Virus record (IMG/VR): IMGVR_UViG_3300029998_000021
Reading direction: 5' to 3' (one strand)
Length of the DNA stretch: 14,699 nt
DNA from: a virus
Lineage: Duplodnaviria; Heunggongvirae; Uroviricota; Caudoviricetes
Part shown: in pieces, positions 1 to 13,796 of the stretch
How the letters are laid out: each line of letters opens with the position of its first letter
Numbering within the stretch: position 1 is the stretch's first letter
Position numbers and translations under genes: made by a program
The notes under the pieces: generated by a model
The model's database searches: none
What the model was told of the DNA's origin: nothing
The model's input: only the letters and a program-made list of their open reading frames with translations

Positions 1-697
1 CAATTAAAATACCAATATCTTCAAAATTAAATTCATTTTTCCATGGTATCCAAGGATTATCAAAAATATAAACTGGTATTGAGCCGTATTGTAATGACTC
101 ACAAATTCTAAAAGATGTTGAACCATATCCTCTTGGACATAATGAAAACACATTTCTTTCCATTATTTCTGAAAAACCATCATAACTTAATGAATTACTT
201 ATAAAAAATCCTGACTGACCAAATAATTCTTTAACCATAATATCTCTAACTTCATGCCGACCATTTATAGCACCTACAAAACCTGCAAGGATATCTCTAT
301 TTCTAATTTTAATATTTGGATTAGGTTTACAAATTAAAGGAATTTCAATTCCTAAATTTTTTCTTGGTACATTTTTCTTTCCTCCTCCACCTGCACCATA
401 TACAATAATATCTAAATGATCAATATTCTGCAATATACCATCATCATATTGTAAAATAGTAAAATATTTTTTTGTTTTATCTAAAGAATCTAAAAAATAT
501 TGTAAATCAGACATATCATATTCAGCATTACCTCTACTTAAATAAAAATTTGTCCAAAGTATAGGCAAATAAACTCTATTAGTAACATCATTATTAGTAA
601 TATAATTATAGAAGAATTCTTCAAAAATCATATTATTAAATGGTGGATAAGTATGATTTGTTTTTACTATAAATTTCATTGGTGTATCTTGAATCAT
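1..697 (-). CDS. Exostosin-like (GT47-like) glycosyltransferase, 3' end runs off the window
   Basis: Not in the ORF track. Hand translation from ATG at 697 is open to the window edge (232 codons): MIQDTPMKFIVKTNHTYPPFNN...SVFSLCPRGYGSTSFRICESLQYGSIPVYIFDNPWIPW. This matches the exostosin C-terminal motif (S.FcLcPrG.g..s.R..Eal..GcIPV.i.d...lPf). It starts 9 nt after the GT32 stop. Confidence 0.85.
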   Translation of the reverse strand, partial: MIQDTPMKFIVKTNHTYPPFNNMIFEEFFYNYITNNDVTNRVYLPILWTNFYLSRGNAEYDMSDLQYFLDSLDKTKKYFTILQYDDGILQNIDHLDIIVYGAGGGGKKNVPRKNLGIEIPLICKPNPNIKIRNRDILAGFVGAINGRHEVRDIMVKELFGQSGFFISNSLSYDGFSEIMERNVFSLCPRGYGSTSFRICESLQYGSIPVYIFDNPWIPWKNEFNFEDIGILI

Positions 698-706
698 ATT
701 AATAAA

Positions 707-1468
707 TTATTTTTGCCAATTTGTATGCCATAAATGAAGACAATAAGAGTTTTCATTCAAAAAACTATAAATAAATTTCTTAGATTCTTCACCATCATCT
801 ACATTGTGTCTATAAACAGCAGGAAAAGGAAATAGAAATTTTGTAGGAAATATAACAACATTATCATTTTTATTTATAACATCAAAAAATACTTTTGTTA
901 CAAAATATGGTCCAGTATTATTCATAACACCATTGATATCATCTACAAATGTTGTTTTCTTTTGTAATTCTGACACCAAATTAGAAACATATTTATGATT
1001 AGGTATTGATGCCATAATACTGTTAAATACTTCTGGCTCTTGTACATGTCCATTACCAGCAAAAAAATCTAAATGACATAAATCATCAAATGGTTTAATA
1101 AAATCAAAATCAGCATCAACATATAGTCCTCCAATTCTTTCTAATATTTCATATCTTAAAATATCACTTTTTGCACCCAAATTTTTTATATTATTGAACA
1201 ATTTAATATTTTTTAATCCAAAATCATCTACATCGTTATCAGTCCATAATTTATATTCCCAATTTGGATTAATTTTAATCAATTTTTCTCTATATAAATC
1301 ATACCTTTTAGGTACATCACTGCCTAGCCATATTTGATGTATAATTTTAGGAATTTTGTCAATTTTTTCCTTTTTTTCTAAAAAATTCTTATTATACAAT
1401 TCTTCTAATAATAACCATCGTTTATCACTATTTATAGAATTTACCATGTTAATTAAATAATCACTCAT
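707..1468 (-). CDS. GT32 family (OCH1/Gly_transf_sug-like) glycosyltransferase
   Basis: IPKIIHQIW motif, SDILRYEIL...GGLYVDAD (DxD) motif and a C-terminal HLWHTNW, all typical of GT32. Confidence 0.9.
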   Translation of the reverse strand: MSDYLINMVNSINSDKRWLLLEELYNKNFLEKKEKIDKIPKIIHQIWLGSDVPKRYDLYREKLIKINPNWEYKLWTDNDVDDFGLKNIKLFNNIKNLGAKSDILRYEILERIGGLYVDADFDFIKPFDDLCHLDFFAGNGHVQEPEVFNSIMASIPNHKYVSNLVSELQKKTTFVDDINGVMNNTGPYFVTKVFFDVINKNDNVVIFPTKFLFPFPAVYRHNVDDGEESKKFIYSFLNENSYCLHLWHTNWQK

Positions 1469-1469
1469 A

Positions 1470-2261
1470 TCAATTTAAATAATTTTTATAGATATAATCT
1501 TCAAGTACTTCCATTTCTAATACCTTTTCAAAATTTTCCTTAACAAATTCCATCTTAGAATAGTATAAATCTGGGGTCAAATCATCAAAAATTAAATCTT
1601 TCAATTTTATTATACCATTTGAATTAAAATAATTTGAAATATTATCTGTACCATAATATATTGGAATCGTACCACTAGCAAAACAATCTAAAATTTTCTC
1701 TGTAAAATAATCATCATATTTAGCATTTTCAATTGCAACAGAAAACATATAATCTTTTAATCCTTCATCTTTAAGTTTTATTTCATTAAAACCTCGACCA
1801 AAAATATCAAATTTATCTTTATTTTCAGAAATAAATTTCAATCTAAGTTTCTGACCATCTGTCATTCCTTTATTTGAAGATACCATTGATAATAACTTAG
1901 TTTTTTGATAAATTTGAGGTTGCTCAATCCAAAACCCCATTGCTGGCACAAATTTAATTTTATCTGGATTAATCTTAATCAGATCCTGATCCATTGTGAA
2001 TAATAAATCATAATAATCTAATATTCTATCTAAATTTCTGAACAAAAAACTATTATCAAATATTGCCTTTGATTCTAAATTCCAAGCAAATTTTTTCCCA
2101 TGTAATTTAGGATAAGATAAACCACTTATTATTGAATCATCTACAAAAAAAGTAGTTTTTTCATAAAAACTATCTTTACTATATTCTATAAATTTAGATT
2201 TTTTCCACCAAGTTGAAGAATGTGCATGTCGGAATGGTCCACCAATTAAATTAACTTTCAT
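1470..2261 (-). CDS. GT10 family alpha-1,3/4-fucosyltransferase-like protein
   Basis: YMFSVAIENAKYDDYFTEKILDCFASGTIPIYYG matches the alpha-1,3-fucosyltransferase motif (Y.F.la.ENs...dYvTEK......g.vPiy.G). The ATG overlaps the upstream stop (ATGA at 2258-2261). Confidence 0.8.
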   Translation of the reverse strand: MKVNLIGGPFRHAHSSTWWKKSKFIEYSKDSFYEKTTFFVDDSIISGLSYPKLHGKKFAWNLESKAIFDNSFLFRNLDRILDYYDLLFTMDQDLIKINPDKIKFVPAMGFWIEQPQIYQKTKLLSMVSSNKGMTDGQKLRLKFISENKDKFDIFGRGFNEIKLKDEGLKDYMFSVAIENAKYDDYFTEKILDCFASGTIPIYYGTDNISNYFNSNGIIKLKDLIFDDLTPDLYYSKMEFVKENFEKVLEMEVLEDYIYKNYLN

Positions 2262-2890
2262 ATTTTAGTATTTTTTAATAATACATTATTTTCAACAAAT
2301 TTAACAAATTTAAAATCAGGCAACATTTTTAATATCTGCTCTAAATTTGGCTGCCCTTCATATAATTCTGAATTATCAAATTCTGTATATAAATATTTAG
2401 TTTTTTTCAAAGTTTCAATTGCACCTTCTATCATTTCTTTTTCTGCACCTTGAACATCAACCCAAATAAAATCTATACCTTCTAATTTTTCTTCATTAAA
2501 CCAATCATCTAACTTTTTAGTTTCAACTTTAATTGTATTATTAAAAATACACCATCTATGCTGTAATAAATGTAATTTTGGTGTTTTAATTGATGATGAT
2601 TTATCCCAATCACCATACCACGGCATTCCAGGATTACTACCACCACTTAAATGAAAATCAATCTCTCCATTACTGTTTGATATTGCTATTTCATATAATT
2701 TATAATTTGAATATTTTTTCATGCGATTTTTAAACCTTTGTATTGCCCTTGGATCAGGTTCAAAACAATATAATTGTATATTCTTAAATGTGTTTACAAA
2801 ATCCTCAGAATCTTCACCATCATTTGTACCAATTTCAAGAATTATTGGATTATCTTTTTTTAATAATTGTAGTATTTCTCTCTTATTCAT
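2258..2890 (-). CDS. FkbM family SAM-dependent O-methyltransferase (NoeI-like)
   Basis: Motif I ILEIGTNDG, then CFEPDPR, TKKLDDW and IDFIWVDVQGAE, all FkbM hallmarks. The WDKSSSIKTPKLHL segment resembles rhizobial NoeI as I recall it. Confidence 0.9.
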   Translation of the reverse strand: MNKREILQLLKKDNPIILEIGTNDGEDSEDFVNTFKNIQLYCFEPDPRAIQRFKNRMKKYSNYKLYEIAISNSNGEIDFHLSGGSNPGMPWYGDWDKSSSIKTPKLHLLQHRWCIFNNTIKVETKKLDDWFNEEKLEGIDFIWVDVQGAEKEMIEGAIETLKKTKYLYTEFDNSELYEGQPNLEQILKMLPDFKFVKFVENNVLLKNTKI

Positions 2891-2897
2891 AATTTTA

Positions 2898-3695
2898 TTA
2901 ATTTATTAATTTTATTTCAATTTCTTGATGACAAGATATATTTTTTAATCCTTTGAAATCCTCAAAATCAATAATATAACCTTCTAAAAATTTATCATTC
3001 AAAAATTCGGCAGAAACATTTCCATGAACATTATTATTCCAATTTTGAACTTTATTTATTGGATTATTTACAATCACTGATTCTTCAAAACAAATCATTT
3101 TTGGCCTCTTTAATGGATAACTAGCCAATATACTTTCATAAGAATTTGGATTATTAAAAGTTAATACCTTTGTTATAGCAGTTATTTCTTTAGTTCTAAA
3201 AAAATGTCCATCTAAACTCATTGGATAACTATAATCACCTTGTGCGCCATACCACTTAAATAATAAATTAGAATCAAAATTAGGTGGTGTCATTCTAATT
3301 CTTGCTGCATAACAATAAGTTAAATATGGATGTAACCTAAGTGATAAAGTCAAAATATCATCATTTAATGTAAATAACTTAAATTGTTTAGAATCTAATG
3401 TAAAATAATTTTTAAAAACTATATCATCAACAAAAAATATAGTGTATGGATTATTCTGATCTAATAAAAGAACAACATGACGTTTGAAATCTTGTATTTC
3501 CCTTATATAATTAATATTTGAATCATTATGAATACTGAAAAGTTTATCATAACCATCTTTATACTTATCATTTGAATAAGTATATAATACATTAATTTTA
3601 TAATCATAAAATTCTTTAAAATAAAATTTCATTGATCTCAAAAAAAGTTCTAGTTGTGAGGCACGATCTTTACTGAAAACTATAATATTCAACAT
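2898..3695 (-). CDS. Putative GT-A fold glycosyltransferase
   Basis: N-terminal beta strand IIVFSKDR.SQL..FL.S and an FFVDD DxD-like motif, in an operon of glycosyltransferases. The family cannot be assigned. Confidence 0.6.
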   Translation of the reverse strand: MLNIIVFSKDRASQLELFLRSMKFYFKEFYDYKINVLYTYSNDKYKDGYDKLFSIHNDSNINYIREIQDFKRHVVLLLDQNNPYTIFFVDDIVFKNYFTLDSKQFKLFTLNDDILTLSLRLHPYLTYCYAARIRMTPPNFDSNLLFKWYGAQGDYSYPMSLDGHFFRTKEITAITKVLTFNNPNSYESILASYPLKRPKMICFEESVIVNNPINKVQNWNNNVHGNVSAEFLNDKFLEGYIIDFEDFKGLKNISCHQEIEIKLIN

Positions 3696-3725
3696 AAATT
3701 ATTATAGGTTGTGGAAATAAAAAGG

Positions 3726-3742
3726 TTTAGAATTATTCTAAA
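3726..3742 (-). terminator. Weak AT-rich hairpin, possible terminator or attenuator between the nuclease-Mom gene and the glycan operon
   Basis: TTTAGAAT-T-ATTCTAAA dyad, followed on the minus strand by CCTTTTTATTT. The stem is almost all A/T. Confidence 0.3.
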
Positions 3743-3745
3743 TAA

Positions 3746-5725
3746 TTATCTATTTTTTGGATATACATATGTCTTATTAATTTGTTCGAATTTTTTTCTC
3801 AAAAATTTAGTTTCTCCATTATCTTTACCTAAAATATAAATGTATTTATGTTTAGATTTTGCTTTTCTAACATAGCATTTACCTAAAGACTCAATAGAAT
3901 AAGTTTTCATCATTTCAACAATATTATTTGGGATTTTATTCCATAAAATTGTAGTTTTTGAATTCCATTCATTATTCCATATTATATTATTTTTTCTTAA
4001 ATATGATTTATAAAAATTCAATTTTCTAAATCCTCTATTATTAGTCCATCCTTTATCTGGATTATCTGGATTAAAATATAACTTATCTGAGCCAAATTTA
4101 TTACCAATATAATAAAAATTACAAGCTTGATAAATTGTACCAAGTTCTTTAGCTTCAGGATCTGCATATGCTTCAAATAATCTAAATTCTGTATTATCAG
4201 CCATCCACCTTATAGACCACATTAATAATGCACTTGCTAAATTTTTAGGTGTCCATGACGCACAAGCACCTCTACTTATAAGTTTTTCTATGCCAGATGT
4301 ATCATTTCCTAATATTGAAGAAAATGAGTTTGGTGTTGACATCACAATAGATCCAGCTAATATGCCATTATATGTGGCAATAAATCTATGTGTAGGTCTA
4401 TTAGGCATCTTACCTAACCATTCATATTTTTTAATAAAATTAACAATATCTTTTGTCTTATTATCTTCTTTATCAACAAATTCAAAATTAAAATCTTTGA
4501 TAGTTAAATTTTCATAGTTAAAATTTAATTTTTTAATATCATCATCTAATGTATTTAATCGTAATTCATATTGCCATGAATGTTCTTTATTGTAGATAAT
4601 AGGATTAATCATCTTATTAAAAATATTATAATTTCTATCTATAATAAAAATAAAATTATAACCATTTTCTTCACACACTAATTTCTTAGCTATATTTTTA
4701 TCATAATGTTTATCATACCAATATGAAGATTTTATTTCTATTATTAAATTTAATTTTTCAAAATAAAAATCAGGATAATATATACATTCTTTATCTTTGA
4801 AATTATATTTTATTGCTTTACCTCTTTTTATTTCAATTTTATCAAAATAATTATTTAAAAAATCTAATTCATATTCTCCTTGATAATATAATTCAGATTC
4901 ACGAAATTTAAAGATATGTAGACCATTTTTAATCATTTTTTTATATACATCTGCATTTTGTGCTGGATAATATACACCATATTTTTCAAAAATAATATTA
5001 GATAATTTTTGTTTTACTAACTCATTTTGCATTGGATTTTCAAATCCAAATTTTTCTAAACAAGTTTCTTTATATTTTTCTCTATTATTATAAAACTCAT
5101 CATTATATCTTTCTTTTTTTGTATCAGATATTTTATCTTTAACTATTTTAGAGCCTAAAGGTGACTTAGATAAATATCTTAGCAAACATGTATTTTCAAC
5201 TTTTAATTTAATTTCATCATTCTTCAAAGGTGAGTCTACACCATATAAATTATTTAATGTTATTTTTGATTTTTCTTTAAAATCATTAGTTGACATATAT
5301 TCATCAGAACCATATTTTTCATTAATTGTTTTTTTTGATTTTTCCCTAACTTCCTTATTTTGGATAGAATATTCTACTCCATATCTTTCTAAATTTGTTT
5401 CCTTTGATTTTTCTTTAAACTTATCTAATTTTAATGGATGATCTACACCATATCTTTCTAAATTAGTTTCTTTTGTTCTACTACCAGAACAATGTTTACA
5501 ATGATAAATACTATTTTGAATATTTCTTAAATACGAAAAATATGAAATATTATACTCTTTTTGACATAAATCACAAATAACATCTATTTTATGCTTTGAT
5601 GTTTTTGGCAAATCAGAAACATCAATAGTTATAATACTACCTGATTTTACATTATAACCTAAATTAATATAATGACCTATATTTTTGTTAGTTGTTTTAA
5701 CTTCTATTCTGTCTATTTTAATCAT
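3746..5725 (-). CDS. Fusion of a homing-endonuclease-like module (Zn ribbon, 23-aa repeats, PD-(D/E)xK nuclease) with a Mu Mom-like GNAT DNA adenine-modification domain
   Basis: CDLC...CKHC Zn ribbon; eight ~23-aa K.T..E+YG repeats; YYPDFY...IIEIKS nuclease motif. From ~aa 372: ISRGAC..WTPKNLAS.LL.WSIRW...EAYADPEAKELGTIYQACNFYYIG and terminal HKYIYIL...YPK, paralleling Mu Mom (..QSFADERCG..GVVYQASNFDFIG...YRYI.FL...YPK). Confidence 0.8.
   Translation of the reverse strand: MIKIDRIEVKTTNKNIGHYINLGYNVKSGSIITIDVSDLPKTSKHKIDVICDLCQKEYNISYFSYLRNIQNSIYHCKHCSGSRTKETNLERYGVDHPLKLDKFKEKSKETNLERYGVEYSIQNKEVREKSKKTINEKYGSDEYMSTNDFKEKSKITLNNLYGVDSPLKNDEIKLKVENTCLLRYLSKSPLGSKIVKDKISDTKKERYNDEFYNNREKYKETCLEKFGFENPMQNELVKQKLSNIIFEKYGVYYPAQNADVYKKMIKNGLHIFKFRESELYYQGEYELDFLNNYFDKIEIKRGKAIKYNFKDKECIYYPDFYFEKLNLIIEIKSSYWYDKHYDKNIAKKLVCEENGYNFIFIIDRNYNIFNKMINPIIYNKEHSWQYELRLNTLDDDIKKLNFNYENLTIKDFNFEFVDKEDNKTKDIVNFIKKYEWLGKMPNRPTHRFIATYNGILAGSIVMSTPNSFSSILGNDTSGIEKLISRGACASWTPKNLASALLMWSIRWMADNTEFRLFEAYADPEAKELGTIYQACNFYYIGNKFGSDKLYFNPDNPDKGWTNNRGFRKLNFYKSYLRKNNIIWNNEWNSKTTILWNKIPNNIVEMMKTYSIESLGKCYVRKAKSKHKYIYILGKDNGETKFLRKKFEQINKTYVYPKNR
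4955..5473 (-). repeat. Eight ~23-aa tandem protein repeats (K-x-T-x-x-E-R/K-Y-G) in the endonuclease-like module
   Basis: KETNLERYGVDHPLKLDKFKEKS / KETNLERYGVEYSIQNKEVREKS / KKTINEKYGSDEYMSTNDFKEKS / KITLNNLYGVDSPLKNDEIKLKV / ENTCLLRYLSKSPLGSKIVKDKI / SDTKKERYNDEFYNNREKY / KETCLEKFGFENPMQNELVKQKL / SNIIFEKYGVYYPAQNADVYKKM. Confidence 0.85.
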
Positions 5726-5729
5726 AATC

Positions 5730-5737
5730 TATATATT
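5730..5737 (-). promoter_or_regulatory. Putative late promoter -10 box AATATATA
   Basis: AATATATA 4 nt upstream of the ATG at 5725. The same box precedes four other minus-strand genes and resembles the T4 late box TATAAATA. Confidence 0.55.
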
Positions 5738-5788
5738 ATTTAATAGCACAAAAGTTTATATTATTATCAATTTAATAGCACAAAAGTT
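5738..5788. repeat. Perfect 19-bp direct repeat pair, 32-bp period
   Basis: ATTTAATAGCACAAAAGTT at 5738-5756 and 5770-5788, abutting the putative late promoter of the nuclease-Mom gene. Confidence 0.9.
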
Positions 5789-5812
5789 CAAATTAATATA
5801 TAATAACACACA

Positions 5813-5842
5813 AAAAAAGAGAGGATAAATCCTCTCTTTTTT
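5813..5842 (-). terminator. Intrinsic terminator of the major capsid gene (potentially bidirectional)
   Basis: AAAAAAGAGAGGA-TAAA-TCCTCTCTTTTTT perfect 13-bp stem with T tracts on both strands, about 20 nt after the MCP stop (TAA TAG). Confidence 0.9.
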
Positions 5843-5861
5843 ATTATGTAGTGTGTAACTA

Positions 5862-7682
5862 TTAGATTAAAACACCAGCTGAGTCAGTAACAACAATTGT
5901 CATGAATTGTTTCCAAGGAAAAAATCCGATATCGGCAACCGCGTAACGGCTACGAATCATCATTCTGGGTGCCCAAGTTGCTTCGGAAATAAGTTGAATT
6001 GACTGTGCCATCAAATAAGGTACGAATACCAAACCTGGTTGTTCAACAGAATTCTTTCTTCCTAAGAAGATGCGGTTGTCATCCCATCTTTGATAAGGGT
6101 CAACATAGATGCTGATGTTACCAACATTACCCATTGGGAAAAGTTGACCATTTGCGTTTAAGTTAGCCTTAACAGGGTTAAGAGTATAACCAGCAACATC
6201 TTGAATAACAGATGCTAAGTTACCATTGGTAACAAGATATTGAGCAGGACCTACACGACCTTCAGTTGCGATGAAGTTAGAAGCGTTGTTCAATTTAGCG
6301 ATAAGTTTTCTTTGAATTGAGTGAGTTGTTTCACCACCTGGGGTAGCTGCACCAACTGCTAAATAAGCGTCAACGTTGAAGTCAAATTTAGGATTACCGG
6401 CACTATCTTTTGGAGTAGTCCAAGCAGTTCTATTTTTGTCAGCCATCTCAGTTACTTTTGCGATGATTTGTTTAGAAATAGTTTGGGTAAGTTCGTTAAC
6501 CAATACTGATTCTAATTTTTGAACGATATCCATGCCTGTTGCAGCTTTAATATCTTCAATTTGAGTTCTCTTCAATGAAGAAGTGATTTCGATGTCACCT
6601 ACTTGAATAGTTTTGGTGAAAATGTCAGGACCAATAACGTTTGGATAAGTTCTTTCGTCTTCATCTCTTGTCATAGGTTTGTTCAAATACCAACCTGCAC
6701 TAAATCCAGGAATATGATCTTCAAGTAATGATACTAAATCAATAGTAGCACCTGTTAAAGGAACTTCAGTAACAATAGCGGTAGTAGTTGCAATTTGCAT
6801 TGAAACGTGATCGTTCAATAAATCAACGATTGAATATTGAGCTGTTGGGAAAGTATTTCTATCATCAACAAATCCCCATCCTGCGTTATTAGCGCCTGGG
6901 TTAAATTGACGGAATACTCTAAACATAGGATAACCGTTAATACGTGACCAACCTAAAAATTCCATCATACCTTCTTTTGCAAGAGTTGTATTTTTAGCAT
7001 AATTAGTTAGGGTTGGATCAAATCCTTGAAGAATAGGAGCTGTAATAGCACCTGCTAATGCGTTATAAGCTGCATAGTTACCAGTTGTATTACCCAAGTT
7101 AACTGTTAAAGTTCCACCAGTTAAGTGAACATAAAGAGGATTAGTTAAACCACCTATTTTTTCTCTTACTGGTTGTCCATTAGCATCCAATTTAGCGCCC
7201 ATAGCCAATTTTAAAGCTGCATTAATAGCGGTTTTGCTAGGTAAATTCAATGAGAACATAATTGGTCTTTCATCTTTCAATGTAGAGTCAGCTAAGTTAT
7301 CATATTTAAAGTCAACAAATAGTAAATCAACTTTTGGAGAAGAAGCTGGTTTAACAGCTACTAAATCAAGACCAATAGTTTGAGCAGCAATTTTCATAGA
7401 AACTGGAAGTAAATTCTGTCCAATATCACCTGAACCAATACCACCTGCACCTGCAGTATAATCACCCCATACTAAACCAGGAGTAGTTGAAGGTTGAGCA
7501 GCTGTAACTGGGCCCATACCGTTTAAGTTACCTAATGTGCTATAAGCAACATTTTCGTTCAATGAATGCATTTCTGCATATTCAGACATCCATTTCATTC
7601 TGTAAGGATCACTAACGCCTAAAGATTCCAATACTGGTTTCCATTTTGCGGTTGCTTTCTGTGAATCAATTATTAAATTCAT
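5862..7682 (-). CDS. gp23: Major capsid protein, T4 gp23-like
   Basis: N-terminal KWKPVLE; AQTIGLDLVAVKPASSPKVDLLF (cf. T4 IAFDICGVQPMNSP); C-terminal YVDPY...PGLVFVPY...WAPRMMIRSRYAV (cf. GIYYAPY...FQPVMGFKTRYG). It follows protease/scaffold as in T4. Confidence 0.93.
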   Translation of the reverse strand: MNLIIDSQKATAKWKPVLESLGVSDPYRMKWMSEYAEMHSLNENVAYSTLGNLNGMGPVTAAQPSTTPGLVWGDYTAGAGGIGSGDIGQNLLPVSMKIAAQTIGLDLVAVKPASSPKVDLLFVDFKYDNLADSTLKDERPIMFSLNLPSKTAINAALKLAMGAKLDANGQPVREKIGGLTNPLYVHLTGGTLTVNLGNTTGNYAAYNALAGAITAPILQGFDPTLTNYAKNTTLAKEGMMEFLGWSRINGYPMFRVFRQFNPGANNAGWGFVDDRNTFPTAQYSIVDLLNDHVSMQIATTTAIVTEVPLTGATIDLVSLLEDHIPGFSAGWYLNKPMTRDEDERTYPNVIGPDIFTKTIQVGDIEITSSLKRTQIEDIKAATGMDIVQKLESVLVNELTQTISKQIIAKVTEMADKNRTAWTTPKDSAGNPKFDFNVDAYLAVGAATPGGETTHSIQRKLIAKLNNASNFIATEGRVGPAQYLVTNGNLASVIQDVAGYTLNPVKANLNANGQLFPMGNVGNISIYVDPYQRWDDNRIFLGRKNSVEQPGLVFVPYLMAQSIQLISEATWAPRMMIRSRYAVADIGFFPWKQFMTIVVTDSAGVLI

Positions 7683-7701
7683 TTTATTTTTTTGTTTTTA
7701 T

Positions 7702-7715
7702 AAGACATATGTCTT
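7702..7715. promoter_or_regulatory. 14-bp perfect palindrome in the MCP 5' leader
   Basis: AAGACATATGTCTT lies between the AATATATA box (7731-7738) and the ATG (7682). Confidence 0.45.
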
Positions 7716-7730
7716 TGTTTTTCTTGATAA

Positions 7731-7768
7731 TATATATTCTTTAAAAAATATCGTTTTTTTCTATTTTT
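7731..7768 (-). promoter_or_regulatory. Extended late promoter of the MCP gene (38-bp element, copy 1)
   Basis: Minus strand AAAAATAGAAAAAAACGATATTTTTTAAAGAATATATA, 33/38 identical to 10182-10219 (hand count), ending in the ATATATA box. Confidence 0.7.
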
Positions 7769-10160
7769 AAGAATTTAATTTATCAAATACTGATTTAAAT
7801 CTATCTAACTGTGAATCAGATAATTTAGAGCCGTCAACAAGACGATTTTCAGTGATTAATTGTTTTGAAGGTTTTTCGTTTGTATACCTTTCTAAATCTC
7901 TACTAAACCAGAAACTCTCAAATTTTTGTACTGTATCTAAGGCAGGGAATAATCTTGAAGATGTCAAGATTTGGTTTTTTACATTTGTGTCGAGTTTTTC
8001 CCAAATTGGTGTTAATTCTGATGGCATTGCATCAAGTAATAATTCATTAAATGACTTTTTCTTTGGAGAAAGAGCTTCATTGATGATTGATAAAACTTGT
8101 GCTTCTGAAGTGTACTTACCTTCGCTTTCTTTTAATGCGATTTTAACTTTAACTTTATCGTCATTACTTAAGTTATAATAAGCTGTTTTTCTCTTTTCTG
8201 TTAAGAACATCAAGAAATGTGGTTGATCTGTTTCTGAAGCTTTACGTTTTTTAGTTTCAAGGATCAAAGTATTTAAATTTTCTGTTAATCTGTTTTGAAC
8301 GTTTGTTAATCTGCTACCAAGTCTAGTAACTTTAGATTCATGAACCTCAACTTCTGGTTGTGCACCTTCAGCATCAGGAACGTCTAATTTAACAACAATC
8401 ATTCCATTTTGAGGATTAGTTGCTTGAACTTCACCTGTTTGATCACCAATAGCGACAGTTTCGCCAGGAGATGGCATACCTGTTACTTCACCTTCACCAG
8501 TATCTGTAAGAGCTGGTTCTTCAGTTGTTGGCTCAATTGGTTCTTCTGTTGGTAATTCTCCATCAGGTTCTCCGTCTTCAACTGGTTCTTCAACACCTTC
8601 TTCGCCTGTTGGTTCTTCGGTTGTTGGTTGATCTACAGTTGGTTCAGCTGTTGGTTCAGCGGTTGGTGTAGTTGCTGGTTCTTCATAATATTTATTAACA
8701 TCAACGTCGTCATCTTCATTAATAAATTGGAATTTACTTTCAAGAACTTTTCCAGTTTTTAAATGTTCTGTTAAAAGTTTTGAACCTTCAATAGTTTTAT
8801 CTAAACTTTCTGCAATATAATTAGTATAAGCCATTGCATCGTCTAGATTTTCAGCAATATACTCTGAATAAGAGATATTATTATCTACATGTTCTGCAAT
8901 ATATTCTGAATAAGCAATATTATTATCAAGATTTTCGGCTATATACTCTGAATAAACAATAGAGTTATCAAGATTTTCTGCTAAATATTCTGAATAAACA
9001 ATTGAATTATCAAGATTTTCTGCTAAGTATTGTGAGTACTCAATTGAATTGTCAAGATTTTCAGCGATATACTCTGAATAATCAATAGTTTTATCAAGAT
9101 TTTCAGCGATATATTCTGAATATTTGATATTTTTGTCAACATGTTCTGCAATATATTCTGAAAAGTCAATATTTTTATCCAAGGTTTCAGCGATATATTT
9201 ACCATAGTCAATAGATTTGTCTAGAGTTTCAGCTAAATACTCAGAATAATCACTTACTTTTTCTAAACTTTCAGCAAGATAGTCGTTGTGCTTAATTAAA
9301 TCGGTTGTAGTTTTTCTCAACTCAGCATTTTCTTTAACAACAATTGTCAAATTTTCTGCTAAATAATCTAAGTATTTGCCGATTTTTGTTTGTTGTTCTT
9401 GTAATTTTTCATAATAGCCTAGCATATCATTTAACTTAGAAGGATCAAAATCGCCTTTTGTTTTAATGGCTTCATTGATATTACCTTTGAATTTTTCAAT
9501 TTCTTCTGTTAAATAATTTGAATACTCAAGCATTTGTTTTTTGGTTACAAAGTCTTCATTCATTTTAAATAATTCATTAATTTTTGACTCGTCGGATATA
9601 TCATATACCCTAAAGTTGGCTGATTCATTAAATCCCAAACTTTCATTTAACGATTTAACTTCCATTCGTGCTGAACTAAATCCTGGATCAGCAACGGCAT
9701 CATAAGTAAATAACTTTTTAACAGTTACTGTTCCATCTGATTCTGTGATACCCGCAGCTCGAGACGACACGAAAATAGGACAACCATCATCAACAAGTGC
9801 TTTAGCCTCTTTACCCCAATGGGTATTAAGCAATCTAATTTCACCTTTAACTACGTTAGTTTCTTTAACGAAAAAGGCTTTTTCAATTGTGTGGGAAACT
9901 CTTGATAATGAAGTGTCAAAAACATCTGGGTGGTCAAATTCTCCATAAACAACTCCTAACTGATTCTTACGACTTATTAATTCGTTCAAGTGAGGGAGGA
10001 ACTTATCAGCAGTATATATCCTATCATTACGATTTTTGATATTGAATTCTGTGAATGTCCCTTCTAAAATGTACTGTCTATCTTTACCATTAGTAATAGA
10101 AGAGTGTTCATTTAGTTTTAGACCGTCCATGCAATGTTCTACAATAAGGACTGGTTTCAT
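7767..10160 (-). CDS. gp21: Prohead protease (gp21-like) fused to prohead core/scaffold (gp22-like), 797 aa from the ATG at 10160
   Basis: YILEGTF..FNIKNRNDRIY, GEFDHP (catalytic His), FVSSRAAG (catalytic Ser) and YDAVADPGF match T4 gp21 motifs. A long acidic coiled-coil/repeat region follows in the gp22 position. The track start at 10205 runs through the promoter, so MKPVL at 10160 is the likelier start. Confidence 0.88.
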   Translation of the reverse strand: MKPVLIVEHCMDGLKLNEHSSITNGKDRQYILEGTFTEFNIKNRNDRIYTADKFLPHLNELISRKNQLGVVYGEFDHPDVFDTSLSRVSHTIEKAFFVKETNVVKGEIRLLNTHWGKEAKALVDDGCPIFVSSRAAGITESDGTVTVKKLFTYDAVADPGFSSARMEVKSLNESLGFNESANFRVYDISDESKINELFKMNEDFVTKKQMLEYSNYLTEEIEKFKGNINEAIKTKGDFDPSKLNDMLGYYEKLQEQQTKIGKYLDYLAENLTIVVKENAELRKTTTDLIKHNDYLAESLEKVSDYSEYLAETLDKSIDYGKYIAETLDKNIDFSEYIAEHVDKNIKYSEYIAENLDKTIDYSEYIAENLDNSIEYSQYLAENLDNSIVYSEYLAENLDNSIVYSEYIAENLDNNIAYSEYIAEHVDNNISYSEYIAENLDDAMAYTNYIAESLDKTIEGSKLLTEHLKTGKVLESKFQFINEDDDVDVNKYYEEPATTPTAEPTAEPTVDQPTTEEPTGEEGVEEPVEDGEPDGELPTEEPIEPTTEEPALTDTGEGEVTGMPSPGETVAIGDQTGEVQATNPQNGMIVVKLDVPDAEGAQPEVEVHESKVTRLGSRLTNVQNRLTENLNTLILETKKRKASETDQPHFLMFLTEKRKTAYYNLSNDDKVKVKIALKESEGKYTSEAQVLSIINEALSPKKKSFNELLLDAMPSELTPIWEKLDTNVKNQILTSSRLFPALDTVQKFESFWFSRDLERYTNEKPSKQLITENRLVDGSKLSDSQLDRFKSVFDKLNS
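8790..9293 (-). repeat. Twelve in-frame 42-nt (14-aa) tandem repeats, consensus xYSEYIAENLDxxI
   Basis: KHNDYLAESLEKVS, DYSEYLAETLDKSI, DYGKYIAETLDKNI, DFSEYIAEHVDKNI, KYSEYIAENLDKTI, DYSEYIAENLDNSI, EYSQYLAENLDNSI, VYSEYLAENLDNSI, VYSEYIAENLDNNI, AYSEYIAEHVDNNI, SYSEYIAENLDDAM, AYTNYIAESLDKTI. Confidence 0.95.
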
Positions 10161-10181
10161 AAATTTTTTTGGTTTTTGTTT

Positions 10182-10219
10182 TATATATAAGTTAAAAAAT
10201 ACCATTTTTTTCTATTTTT
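10182..10219 (-). promoter_or_regulatory. Extended late promoter of the protease-scaffold gene (38-bp element, copy 2)
   Basis: Minus strand AAAAATAGAAAAAAATGGTATTTTTTAACTTATATATA, 33/38 identical to 7731-7768, about 21 nt upstream of the ATG at 10160. Confidence 0.7.
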
Positions 10220-10232
10220 GAATTAATCAACT

Positions 10233-10281
10233 ATTTAAAATGAAAAAACCAGATTTTTAATCTGGTTTTTTCATTTTAAAT
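10233..10281 (-). terminator. Long perfect inverted repeat, intrinsic terminator ending the portal/183-aa transcript
   Basis: ATTTAAAATGAAAAAACCAGA (10233-10253) pairs perfectly with TCTGGTTTTTTCATTTTAAAT (10261-10281). The CCAGA/TCTGG core is followed by T6 on both strands, and one arm overlaps the stop at 10276. Confidence 0.85.
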
Positions 10282-10827
10282 TGTATTCATAAAATCATCA
10301 ATATCATCATCAGTTTTCTTTATTACTACATTTTTAGGTTTTTTAGTAGTTTTAGTGTTGCTTTTTATTTCTACTTTTGTAGCAACTAATTTTTTATTTT
10401 CTTTTACTTCTTTTATCATTTCTTCAAGTGAAGGCTGTTTAAAAATTTCTTTTACTTCATCTTCTTTAATCTTTTCCAAAAATGCGGCATTTTCATCATC
10501 AGATTTTTTCATTTCTTCTTCAAAAGAATTTTCAGATTCAATTATTAATATTTTTTCTTTGACCCATTCTTCACTAAAATATGGGATGTTGTCTTCATTT
10601 ACAATATGCAATAAAGTTTCTGCTATTTCTGCTCTTTGAATTTTAGTTTTTTCTTCATTCTCAGTGTTAATGTCATATTTATAACCAGGAATCTTCAATT
10701 TTTTTAATTCGTTATCAATTATAACTTCATAATAATTATCGTTCTCACCTATAAATTTTTCTACATCTTCAATATCAAATATTTCATTGTGATATAAAAT
10801 TGATACTATTCTTCTATCTATACTCAT
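10276..10827 (-). CDS. Acidic/Lys-rich hypothetical protein in the T4 gp67/gp68 position, containing a segment paralogous to the portal C-terminus
   Basis: Lies between portal and protease. RAEIAETLLHIVNEDNIPYFSEEWVKEKIL aligns with portal RAEIASTLSSNLQDAEGKPYLSIEWIVRNIM. Confidence 0.7.
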   Translation of the reverse strand: MSIDRRIVSILYHNEIFDIEDVEKFIGENDNYYEVIIDNELKKLKIPGYKYDINTENEEKTKIQRAEIAETLLHIVNEDNIPYFSEEWVKEKILIIESENSFEEEMKKSDDENAAFLEKIKEDEVKEIFKQPSLEEMIKEVKENKKLVATKVEIKSNTKTTKKPKNVVIKKTDDDIDDFMNTI

Positions 10828-12727: not shown

Positions 12728-12910
12728 ATGAAAGCAAAGCATCATTTAATCGTAGGAATTATATTTATTGCATTATTAGCATTTGAAATAATTGCATTCA
12801 CAGACATATTAAAAGAGCCTTATATGGTTGGTCTTTGCATATTCCTTGGATGTGTTGGTGGTTATAATTTAGGAATGGTATTTAATTATTGTTATTGGCA
12901 TAAAAAATAA
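12728..12910 (+). CDS. Small two-transmembrane-helix membrane protein (60 aa)
   Basis: MKAKHHLIVGIIFIALLAFEIIAF-TDILKEP-YMVGLCIFLGCVGGYNLGMVFNYCYWHKK: two hydrophobic segments and basic ends. The ATG at 12728 is preferred over the track start 12608, which overlaps the portal start. Confidence 0.7.
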   Translation: MKAKHHLIVGIIFIALLAFEIIAFTDILKEPYMVGLCIFLGCVGGYNLGMVFNYCYWHKK

Positions 12911-12923
12911 AACTATTGTGTTG

Positions 12924-13796
12924 TTATTCATTAAATTTACTTTTGAATATTTTCAATATAGCATTTCTTAATTTTTCAAAATGTTCAGTACTTAATAATT
13001 CTGTATCATTCAGAACTAAAATCTTATATGAATTAAACATTTTCAATAAAAATTCCACAGTTATTTTATCACTTAAAACTATTGTTTTTTCATATCTACT
13101 CAAATCTACATAATAACTTTTTCTTATTGATAAATACCAATATCTAAATAGCCAATGTGTATAATTAATTGGTTTCCTAAGCATAGTAATAGACATTAAT
13201 AACTCCTTTTCATATAAATTCCACACTTGAAAATATATTGACTTTAAATGAGGTATTGGAAAATGTGGATCTGTAAAAAATATTTTATTTTGAGTTTTAT
13301 GTACTAAATTATAATTATTGTTTAATGTCTGAGAAAAACAATCACTAGCAAATGGCCTATAATATTCTATTTCAGTCATATCAACTGGTAGATTATTTAT
13401 AAAAAATAATTCTTGTGGTATCACATCAATTATAAAAAAATCGTCATTAAATAATACAAATTTTTCAGATAATTCTGGTATTTTATGTAAAAATAATTCA
13501 ATAGTATTTGAATTAAATGTTGGCAAAAATTCATCAGGAATATAATCTCTATGATATACTATTTTTATTTTATTATTATTAATATTTTTATAAAGAGGAA
13601 TTTGAGATTCATCAGATACAATTAAAAATATTTTATTTACCCAAGGAGCATTTTTTAACATACATTCTATACAATAATAAAAATTATTCCAATTTCTATA
13701 ACGGCATTCTTCAACACCATTGCTATTATATTTTAAAAATTCTTTTTGCCATTTTTTATCATCAGCATCAACATAAGTTACTACAAAATCTATCAT
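12924..13796 (-). CDS. Stealth family (CpsY/SacB/XcbA-like) hexose-1-phosphate transferase
   Basis: CR1 IDFVVTYVD; CR2 RYRNW...APWVNKIFLIV...QIP...IVYH...LPTFNSNTIE..LHKIPELSEKFVLFNDDFF; CR3-like PHFPIPHLKS. Confidence 0.92.
   Translation of the reverse strand: MIDFVVTYVDADDKKWQKEFLKYNSNGVEECRYRNWNNFYYCIECMLKNAPWVNKIFLIVSDESQIPLYKNINNNKIKIVYHRDYIPDEFLPTFNSNTIELFLHKIPELSEKFVLFNDDFFIIDVIPQELFFINNLPVDMTEIEYYRPFASDCFSQTLNNNYNLVHKTQNKIFFTDPHFPIPHLKSIYFQVWNLYEKELLMSITMLRKPINYTHWLFRYWYLSIRKSYYVDLSRYEKTIVLSDKITVEFLLKMFNSYKILVLNDTELLSTEHFEKLRNAILKIFKSKFNE

Follow-up and report, generated by a model that had tools for sequence, protein, structure and literature searches.

A predicted glycan-building cassette with a conserved GT74-like anchor gene in a peat megaphage, and its candidate acceptors

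The window analysed here is a 14.7-kb stretch of phage DNA (14,699 nt; IMGVR_UViG_3300029998_000021), which matches a 25.7-kb IMG/VR record with seven mismatches and whose genes all lie on the minus strand. Its left end holds the start of a cassette of glycosyltransferase and methyltransferase genes, which the original prediction, made from the sequence letters, had described as a glycan-building operon of five tightly packed, co-oriented genes. The coordinates of the open reading frames (ORFs) agree with that description, with intergenic gaps of 9, 1, -4 and 7 nt in the order listed.

2-697, minus strand: exostosin/GT47-like glycosyltransferase, 3' open at the window edge (full length 282 aa; PF03016, 1.5e-12)
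707-1468, minus strand: GT32-type (Gly_transf_sug) DXD glycosyltransferase (PF04488, 3.9e-10, 40.7 bits against a cut-off of 23)
1470-2261, minus strand: GT10 fucosyltransferase-type enzyme, called GT10a (PF00852, 1.3e-11, 44.9 bits against a cut-off of 23.9)
2258-2890, minus strand: FkbM-family methyltransferase (PF05050, Methyltransf_21, 2.2e-20, 73.9 bits, model positions 1-171 of 173; phrog_8156)
2898-3695, minus strand: GT74-like enzyme of 265 aa, first gene and anchor of the cassette (assigned by fold comparison)

Four of the families proposed earlier (methyltransferase, GT10, GT32 and exostosin/GT47) were named by Pfam, and the fifth, GT-A-like, was recovered as a GT-A fold by structural modelling. 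The score of the GT47-like protein was 47.8 bits in the window and 58.7 bits (7.6e-16) for the full 282-aa protein taken from contig L074, against a cut-off of 33.4, with a match that covers the C-terminal half of the PF03016 model only. The GT32-type protein carries the motif GGLYVDADFDF, and an extra short TcdA_TcdB match is confined to its DXD region. GT10a contains a fucosyltransferase motif of the form FxxxIEN...YFTEK, present as FSVAIENAKYDDYFTEK; the conserved motif of alpha-1,3-fucosyltransferases is FxL/VxFENxxxxxYxTEK. The predicted activity of GT10a is transfer of fucose from GDP-fucose, and the FkbM-family protein is probably a sugar O-methyltransferase, with a sugar hydroxyl as the substrate suggested by gene context.

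The operon had been expected to run on past the window edge, and longer contigs of the same phage do add six genes. The complete cassette consists of 11 co-oriented genes in an operon-like arrangement of roughly 9.2 kb, of which the window holds the first five. In order, these encode the GT74-like protein, FkbM, GT10a, GT32, GT47 (282 aa), GT25, a second FkbM, orf297, orf276, GT10b and a C-methyltransferase, giving eight glycosyltransferases and three methyltransferases (two FkbM and one of NDP-hexose C-methyltransferase type). GT10b (PF00852, 37.2 bits, plus FucT_N) has an interrupted motif, in which FAFAFEN is followed by an insertion and then NTSEK. The product of orf276 is GT47/RXYLT1-like, and that of orf297 is modelled with a GT-B fold (pLDDT 92.6) nearest to GT9 heptosyltransferases; the protein heptosyltransferase TibC is among its fold matches, and its closest AlphaFold DB clusters are mostly unnamed entries. 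The last gene encodes a 404-aa methyltransferase with a domain (PF08484, 8.6e-45) whose family is typical of natural-product deoxysugar pathways. None of the 11 proteins has a membrane-spanning segment and all are predicted to be soluble. Upstream the cassette is flanked by a Mom fusion gene and downstream by another DUF7487 gene on the other strand. Just beyond it lie three small ORFs (L074 19171-20065, minus strand), which begin MKTKF... or MKNIK....

That a host-derived fragment had been misassembled onto phage DNA was one outcome the original prediction had named as a possible refutation, and it was not borne out. The gene order is identical in four independent peat assemblies (two from JGI, two from ENA), the junctions recur there and in ~90% identical variants from other samples, and orthologues lie inside complete phage genomes of 640-735 kb. 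The phage DNA is common in peat metagenomes, with at least 12 runs containing at least half of the sampled words from window positions 1-7700. Moreover, the GC content of the cassette (0.20-0.25) and its GC3 equal those of neighbouring phage genes, the phage average being 0.26. Chimeric misassembly or recent capture from a host is therefore ruled out, and the chance that the cassette is an artefact is negligible.

The anchor, encoded by the first gene, has no match in Pfam or PHROG, a profile search of the PDB with its alignment returned none either, and its 279 homologues include no annotated protein. The AlphaFold model (pLDDT 93.5) has a GT-A fold by comparison with the PDB, where GnT-I, POMGNT1 and SpsA matched at TM ~0.5, and a FVDD motif (residues 88-91) is invariant across 38 aligned homologues. 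In a Foldseek search of AFDB clusters the top match, far above all others, was to residues 470-769 of Dictyostelium PgtA (Q54QG0; TM 0.83 by query, 25% identity, E 4e-21). The C-terminal fucosyltransferase domain of PgtA defines CAZy family GT74, has the cytoplasmic protein Skp1 as its substrate and belongs to a family without a solved structure, whose fold is predicted to be GT-A (PMC12595478). The comparison is thus between two predicted structures, GT74 having no Pfam model. Both proteins combine a GT-A fold with a DxD-type motif, the match spans the whole length of the anchor, and PgtA works in the cytoplasm on a protein-linked glycan; PgtA is, however, a two-domain protein of 769 aa, whereas the phage enzyme stands alone at 265 aa. 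On the strength of these models we describe the anchor as GT74-like, and alpha-1,2-fucosyltransferase activity on a Gal-terminated acceptor is a prediction that extends to both donor and linkage.

The anchor has few homologues in bacteria. The one in the cyanobacterium Tumidithrix forms the first domain of a 1173-aa triple transferase and adjoins a gene for a GT2-FkbM fusion and 6-deoxysugar synthesis genes, that is, a polysaccharide locus. A homologue from Variovorax (30% identical) has unrelated neighbour genes and is uninformative.

The phage had been called T4-like, a description that holds for its head genes but not for the phage as a whole. Its capsid protein shares 48-57% identity with those of the uncultured phages LR756501-LR756504 (635-735 kb) and 31% with those of Lak megaphages. 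The genomes LR756501-LR756504 form the Mahaphage clade, for which the predicted hosts are Bacteroidetes (PMC7162821). On these capsid protein identities the phage is a megaphage of the Mahaphage/Lak clade, T4-like in its head genes only, rather than an ordinary T4-like phage, and the hosts of these megaphages are probably Bacteroidota.

Clusters orthologous to the cassette were found in these relatives. The complete 640-kb genome G001 has a 17-kb co-oriented glycan cluster at 233-250 kb, encoding two DUF2827 proteins, five GT2, GT32, GT10, the GT74-like protein, FkbM, GT47, another FkbM and an epimerase, with the capsid gene at ~627 kb. Similar clusters, 50-400 kb from the capsid gene, are present in G002 (676 kb), G003 (345 kb, about half complete) and LR756501 (735 kb); that of G003 also holds two GT11 fucosyltransferase-family genes and sugar-nucleotide enzymes. 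Identity to the relatives is 49-53% for the GT74-like protein, 59% for GT47 (G001, G002), 75% for the C-methyltransferase (LR756501), 39% for GT10a and 35% for orf297, compared with 57-61% for the capsid protein. The GT74-like gene occurs as a single copy in all four megaphage genomes of at least 345 kb (G001, G002, G003, W01) and is directly followed by an FkbM gene in G001, G002 and G003. In a set of 11 phages, pairwise identity of the GT74-like protein is correlated with that of the capsid protein (r = 0.93), a trend rather than a test given that the pairs are non-independent. Comparison of these genomes thus indicates that GT74-like and FkbM form a conserved anchor pair, vertically inherited in the clade.

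The remaining enzymes behave differently. Two close relatives (L006, L016) carry divergent alleles, with GT10 34-40% and GT32 47-76% identical, despite capsid proteins that are 82-87% identical. By these sequence comparisons the other cassette enzymes are exchanged between close relatives, so that the outer part of the predicted glycan diversifies. Full-length GDP-mannose 4,6-dehydratase genes stand beside the clusters of LR756501 and G003, which fits fucose or another 6-deoxyhexose and would supply a 4-keto-6-deoxy substrate for the C-methyltransferase. Together with the GT10a motif and the GT74-like match, these genes support the branched, methylated, fucose-type glycan proposed earlier: judged by families and models, the cassette enzymes should assemble a branched methylated oligosaccharide rich in fucose or other 6-deoxyhexoses.

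The genes and signals between the cassette and the right part of the window are as follows.

3696-3745, minus strand: upstream element of the cassette, TAAAC..TTTTTA..[C/G]TATAAT, 6-7 nt before the ATG of the GT74-like gene
3746-5725, minus strand: fusion gene of a homing-endonuclease-like DUF7487 part and a Mom-like part (PF24308, 2.8e-49; PF25680, 3.6e-11; PHROG homing endonuclease, Mom-like)
5813-5842, minus strand: hairpin resembling an intrinsic terminator (13-bp stem and T run), directly after the capsid gene
5862-7682, minus strand: gp23-type major capsid gene (PF07068, 1.6e-24)
12924-13796, minus strand: Stealth-family gene (hexose-1-phosphate transferase type; PF11380, Stealth_CR2, 9.7e-30), between the portal gene and its upstream neighbour

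Ahead of the cassette, the gene order in the direction of transcription runs from the Stealth-family gene through a gp20-type portal gene, a small ORF, the prohead protease gene and the capsid gene to the Mom fusion gene. As the original prediction had it, a single gene (3746-5725) separates cassette and capsid gene. Whether this adjacency bears on function was judged from synteny with gp23 across 70 related viral loci. Cassette genes lie beside the capsid gene in the closest relatives only, those with capsid proteins at least 75% identical. In two relatives with ~90% identical capsid proteins (L004, L005) the cassette is complete after the capsid gene, and the short contig L007 has the first four genes; L006 and L016 have mosaic versions at this site; and L010, L019 and L023 keep the GT74-like gene alone, with a weak FkbM match in L023 as well. 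More distant relatives among the 70 loci have none of the cassette genes at the capsid-downstream site.

What the relatives do share at this site is mobile DNA. In almost every one the capsid gene is followed directly by between one and three DUF7487, homing-endonuclease or Mom-like genes, a family of which one cluster counts 63 members. Behind these nuclease genes lies a varied cargo: GT2; FkbM with FabH; UDP-GlcNAc 2-epimerase with Thg1; thymidylate synthase with GT2; an HD protein; a GIY-YIG nuclease; DNA-polymerase pieces; a collagen/propeller protein; and a lectin/CBM protein. The capsid-downstream site is a recombination hotspot, apparently for homing as well, at which sugar genes recur in several lineages and unrelated genes do too. 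The Mom fusion gene is itself a mobile DNA-modification gene outside the glycan pathway, absent or replaced by other family members in relatives; fusions of Mom with nucleases are known from jumbo phages (PMC7824862).

The argument from capsid proximity consequently fell, as the distant clusters lie 50-400 kb from the capsid gene and, in the window itself, the stretch from the capsid gene to the cassette contains a terminator, a mobile gene and a promoter-like signal of another type. Adjacency as evidence of function was rejected; the sequence comparison indicates a derived, lineage-specific arrangement, which is not the basis of any statement about the virion made below. Further features were seen at the site and elsewhere. 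A duplicated 19-nt motif, AACTTTTGTGCTATTAAAT, precedes the window's copy of the DUF7487-Mom gene. Two hotspot proteins are candidate capsid fibre or decoration proteins, one with collagen repeats and a beta-propeller (L040 11872-14454, 860 aa) and one of concanavalin-like lectin/CBM type (L020 15051-16835, 594 aa). Outside the window on its right side, and a few kb from the head module, the G000 record has a TnsA-like endonuclease gene (15288-15812) and a TnpB/IS605 OrfB gene (18579-19433).

The regulatory signals were then compared. The hairpin at 5813-5842 is the only terminator-like site in window positions 1-7900. A bipartite promoter-like motif, consisting of GGAAAAAAATGAC, a T run and AATATATAA, was found upstream of the capsid gene in ~50 relatives, and its window copies stand before the capsid gene (7731-7762) and the protease gene (10182-10213) only, both on the minus strand. 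The latter copy overlaps the annotated protease ATG at 10205, and the true start of the protease is therefore probably further downstream. The cassette has its own upstream element, which could be aligned in L074, L004, L007, L016 and L010, stays with the GT74-like gene whatever gene precedes it and, as a TATAAT-type element, occurs at one of 34 gene starts in the 25.7-kb record. A sigma-70 promoter scan found 66 sites against 62.6 expected and is uninformative in such AT-rich DNA. From the terminator, the missing capsid motif and the separate upstream element, the cassette seems to be a transcription unit of its own. Metatranscriptome contigs from four peat runs, compared with window positions 1-10300, contained exact pieces of the capsid gene and almost nothing of the cassette. 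The phage is thus transcriptionally active in peat.

Taken together, the conservation and composition of the cassette favour a model in which the acceptor is one of the phage's own virion proteins (capsid or tail), to which we give a probability of roughly 0.45. In this model the soluble enzymes would act in the cytoplasm of the infected cell on nucleotide sugars and build a branched oligosaccharide, methyl groups would cap or decorate a chain rich in fucose or other 6-deoxyhexoses, and the virion protein would be glycosylated before or during assembly. The glycan may then give the particle a variable surface layer that shields or stabilises it or mediates adhesion. Several lines of evidence lead to this reading. 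First, the core is conserved and the anchor diverges in step with the capsid protein among phages of different origin, while surface acceptors of hosts change fast. Second, five relatives (three of them rated complete) lack lipid-carrier machinery: no polyprenyl-phosphate priming transferase (PF02397, PF00953), Wzx flippase (PF01943) or Wzy/ligase (PF04932) was found in them by searches that were all four positive in control bacteria. In the cassette, likewise, there is no priming, flippase, polymerase or ligase gene, ABC exporters not having been searched. Third, PgtA, the nearest characterised relative of the anchor, glycosylates a cytoplasmic protein. Fourth, there is a precedent in mycobacteriophage Corndog and a comparable pattern of a conserved core glycan in chloroviruses, both described below.

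Residues ~145-345 of the capsid protein itself form a hypervariable insertion with a high share of S, T, N, A and G, the remainder being >90% conserved in an alignment of 13 close relatives, which suggests diversifying selection on the capsid surface.

Several observations weigh against a virion acceptor. The variable insertion does not track the presence of the cassette, and in the 13 close relatives the capsid protein lacks any extension resembling the glycosylated C-terminal tails of mycobacteriophage subunits. No cassette enzyme is recognisable as a protein-priming transferase. The terminator-like hairpin closes the capsid gene ahead of the cassette, the promoter motif of the capsid and protease genes was not found anywhere in the cassette, and the transcript contigs cover the capsid gene and barely the cassette, with the qualification that contigs lose rare transcripts and cannot rank expression. 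The orthologous clusters of G001, G002, G003 and W01 (345-735 kb) lie far from the capsid gene, as given above, and the site shared by the nearest relatives is a hotspot for homing endonucleases and unrelated cargo such as Thg1, HD protein, thymidylate synthase and DNA-polymerase pieces. Bacterial homologues of the anchor sit in polysaccharide clusters. Peripheral soluble transferases are normal for lipid-linked glycans, and priming and export could be borrowed from the host.

Some of these points lead to the host envelope. Here the phage enzymes would work on the inner side of the membrane, where they would extend or re-decorate a lipid-linked host glycan: O-antigen, capsule or the general O-glycan of Bacteroidota. 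They would use the host's own priming, flipping and ligation, and the altered surface would block superinfection by other phages or shift recognition during a long infection. Soluble transferases usually act on lipid-linked acceptors, the bacterial clusters that hold anchor homologues also contain 6-deoxysugar synthesis genes, and the exchange of outer enzymes between close relatives fits diversification of a surface antigen. The Stealth-family gene of the window points the same way, since in bacteria Stealth proteins are capsule polymer makers. This further glycan enzyme flanking the head module is found among the 70 related loci in this phage only: no homologue was detected in them, and tblastn gave no match in 50,697 phage records. 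Between the Stealth and portal genes, the opposite strand carries an ORF of 60 codons (12728-12910) with two hydrophobic segments.

A host-envelope acceptor is also the published reading of the clusters of several glycosyltransferases in jumbo cyanophages, which have been interpreted as modifying lipopolysaccharide or capsular polysaccharide and described as sporadic (Iyer et al. 2021, PMC7824862). GT10a is 46-49% identical to sugar-cluster proteins of the T4-like cyanophages S-SM2, S-T4 and S-SRM01, and GT47 is 36% identical to cyanophage cluster proteins. The clusters of S-SM2, S-T4 and S-SKS1 resemble the one studied here in combining transferases of several families in phages with gp20/gp23 head genes. 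They differ in lying among nucleotide-metabolism and tRNA genes and in including many enzymes of nucleotide-sugar synthesis, whereas the megaphage cassette consists of transferases and methyltransferases only and its anchor pair is conserved clade-wide. Against a host-envelope acceptor stand this conservation and the co-divergence of the anchor with the capsid across samples, when host surface glycans vary quickly between strains; the five relatives without any priming, flippase, polymerase or ligase gene; and the phage composition of the enzymes, whose relatives are mostly phage-only. On balance we consider the host envelope possible, though rather unlikely.

The relationship to PgtA admits another reading. 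The acceptor might be a different soluble molecule, such as a phage or host protein outside the virion (for example in inactivating or masking a host factor), a small molecule or a non-envelope lipid. PgtA modifies a regulatory protein of the cytoplasm (PMC12595478), and the cassette's promoter-like element differs from that of the capsid gene. The presence of TibC among the fold matches of orf297, and the place of the C-methyltransferase family in natural-product pathways, also fit this reading. Eight transferases, however, imply a large glycan, which would be unusual for the modification of a regulatory protein, and the cassette has no genes for aglycone formation, a carrier or export. Such an acceptor appears quite unlikely.

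The Mom-like DNA-modification gene that directly adjoins the cassette raises the matter of the genome itself, where a sugar chain on a modified base would block restriction. Phage glycosyltransferases can place diverse glycans on hydroxymethylated cytosine, and the known DNA-glycan pathways cluster with genes resembling thymidylate synthase or 5-methylpyrimidine dioxygenase (bioRxiv 10.1101/2023.12.21.572611). The cassette has neither, and relatives lack the mobile Mom insertion or have it at another place. A search with the Tet_JBP family gave no match, while the control was silent too, so that this is no evidence of absence. We know of no GT10, GT32, GT47, GT25 or GT9 enzyme that acts on DNA. 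Each relative has a single ThyA gene, >100 kb from its big glycan cluster. DNA hypermodification by the cassette is thus very improbable.

The same ThyA gene is close to a lone GT2 gene in four of five relatives, being adjacent to it in G003 and, beside the capsid gene, in locus L057. The pairs of ThyA-family and lone GT2 genes, neighbours or no more than a few kb apart, are located as follows.

L057, 13110-15421: ThyA-family gene and lone GT2
G003, 292968-294572: ThyA-family gene and lone GT2
G001, 115-121 kb: ThyA-family gene and lone GT2
G002, 414-418 kb: ThyA-family gene and lone GT2

By the criteria of the DNA-glycan study (bioRxiv 10.1101/2023.12.21.572611) this pair, whose layout resembles published DNA hypermodification pathways, is a better candidate for DNA sugar modification than the big cluster.

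For a virion acceptor, the closest phage precedent is found in mycobacteriophages, whose capsid and tail-tube subunits are reported to be glycosylated (Freeman 2023, as cited in PMC12619734). In Corndog the genes gp35-38, for a TylF-type sugar methyltransferase and three transferases (GT2-like and GT25 among them), stand after the portal gene and ahead of the protease and capsid genes. As in the megaphage cassette, a methyltransferase and soluble transferases are co-oriented in the head-gene module, a GT25 enzyme is present and priming and export genes are absent; in the megaphage a single gene separates the capsid gene from the start of the cassette, a placement that its distant relatives do not share. 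Corndog has four such genes rather than eleven, its methyltransferase is TylF-type rather than FkbM, it lacks GT10, GT32, GT47 and GT74-like enzymes, and it differs in host phylum and phage type. The same mycobacteriophage group includes the virion-glycosylation genes of Che8 and Myrna. In these phages a C-terminal tail is the reported glycosylation site, and the megaphage capsid protein lacks such a tail. Corndog gp36 showed no significant similarity to the Stealth protein or to the GT74-like profile, and sequence kinship to the proven mycobacteriophage enzymes was rejected beyond the shared GT25 family.

The second comparison is with chlorovirus PBCV-1, whose capsid is glycosylated by virus-encoded cytoplasmic enzymes, A064R and A111/114R among them (PMC7826918, PMC9614988), and whose conserved core glycan is made by virus-encoded enzymes (PMC7826918). 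Both systems combine several virus-encoded transferases with methyltransferase activity. Both use fucose or other 6-deoxyhexoses, as predicted for the megaphage, and have a core kept across relatives whose decoration varies. Chloroviruses, by contrast, infect eukaryotes and have multidomain enzymes scattered over the genome, and there the glycan structure and its attachment to the capsid are proven. Among the top 50 PDB matches of the anchor model there was no specific match to a PBCV-1 enzyme fold. In its widest form, the virion model would hold that the largest phages (Mahaphage-type, 345-735 kb) possess a vertically inherited cytoplasmic machinery, independent of the host, in which a conserved anchor and exchangeable outer enzymes cover the giant capsids with a methylated glycan rich in fucose, an independently evolved counterpart of that of chloroviruses and mimiviruses; we regard this form as doubtful.

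Clusters of several transferases in jumbo phages and virion glycosylation in mycobacteriophages are already known. What is new is the occurrence in megaphages, an anchor pair shared across the clade, the relation of the anchor to GT74 and the demonstration that the position beside the capsid gene is unconserved. Whichever acceptor applies, the soluble enzymes of the cassette form a small set suited to expression and assay, among them a single-domain relative of the little-studied GT74 fucosyltransferases, and the conserved anchor gene can be used as a marker for such clusters in metagenomes. If the glycan is placed on the host surface, the cassette would be a clade-wide superinfection-exclusion device of megaphages. 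If it is placed on the virion, the largest phages known would join a few mycobacteriophages and the giant viruses of eukaryotes as self-glycosylating viruses, which would suggest a common way in which very large particles are protected or targeted in the environment.

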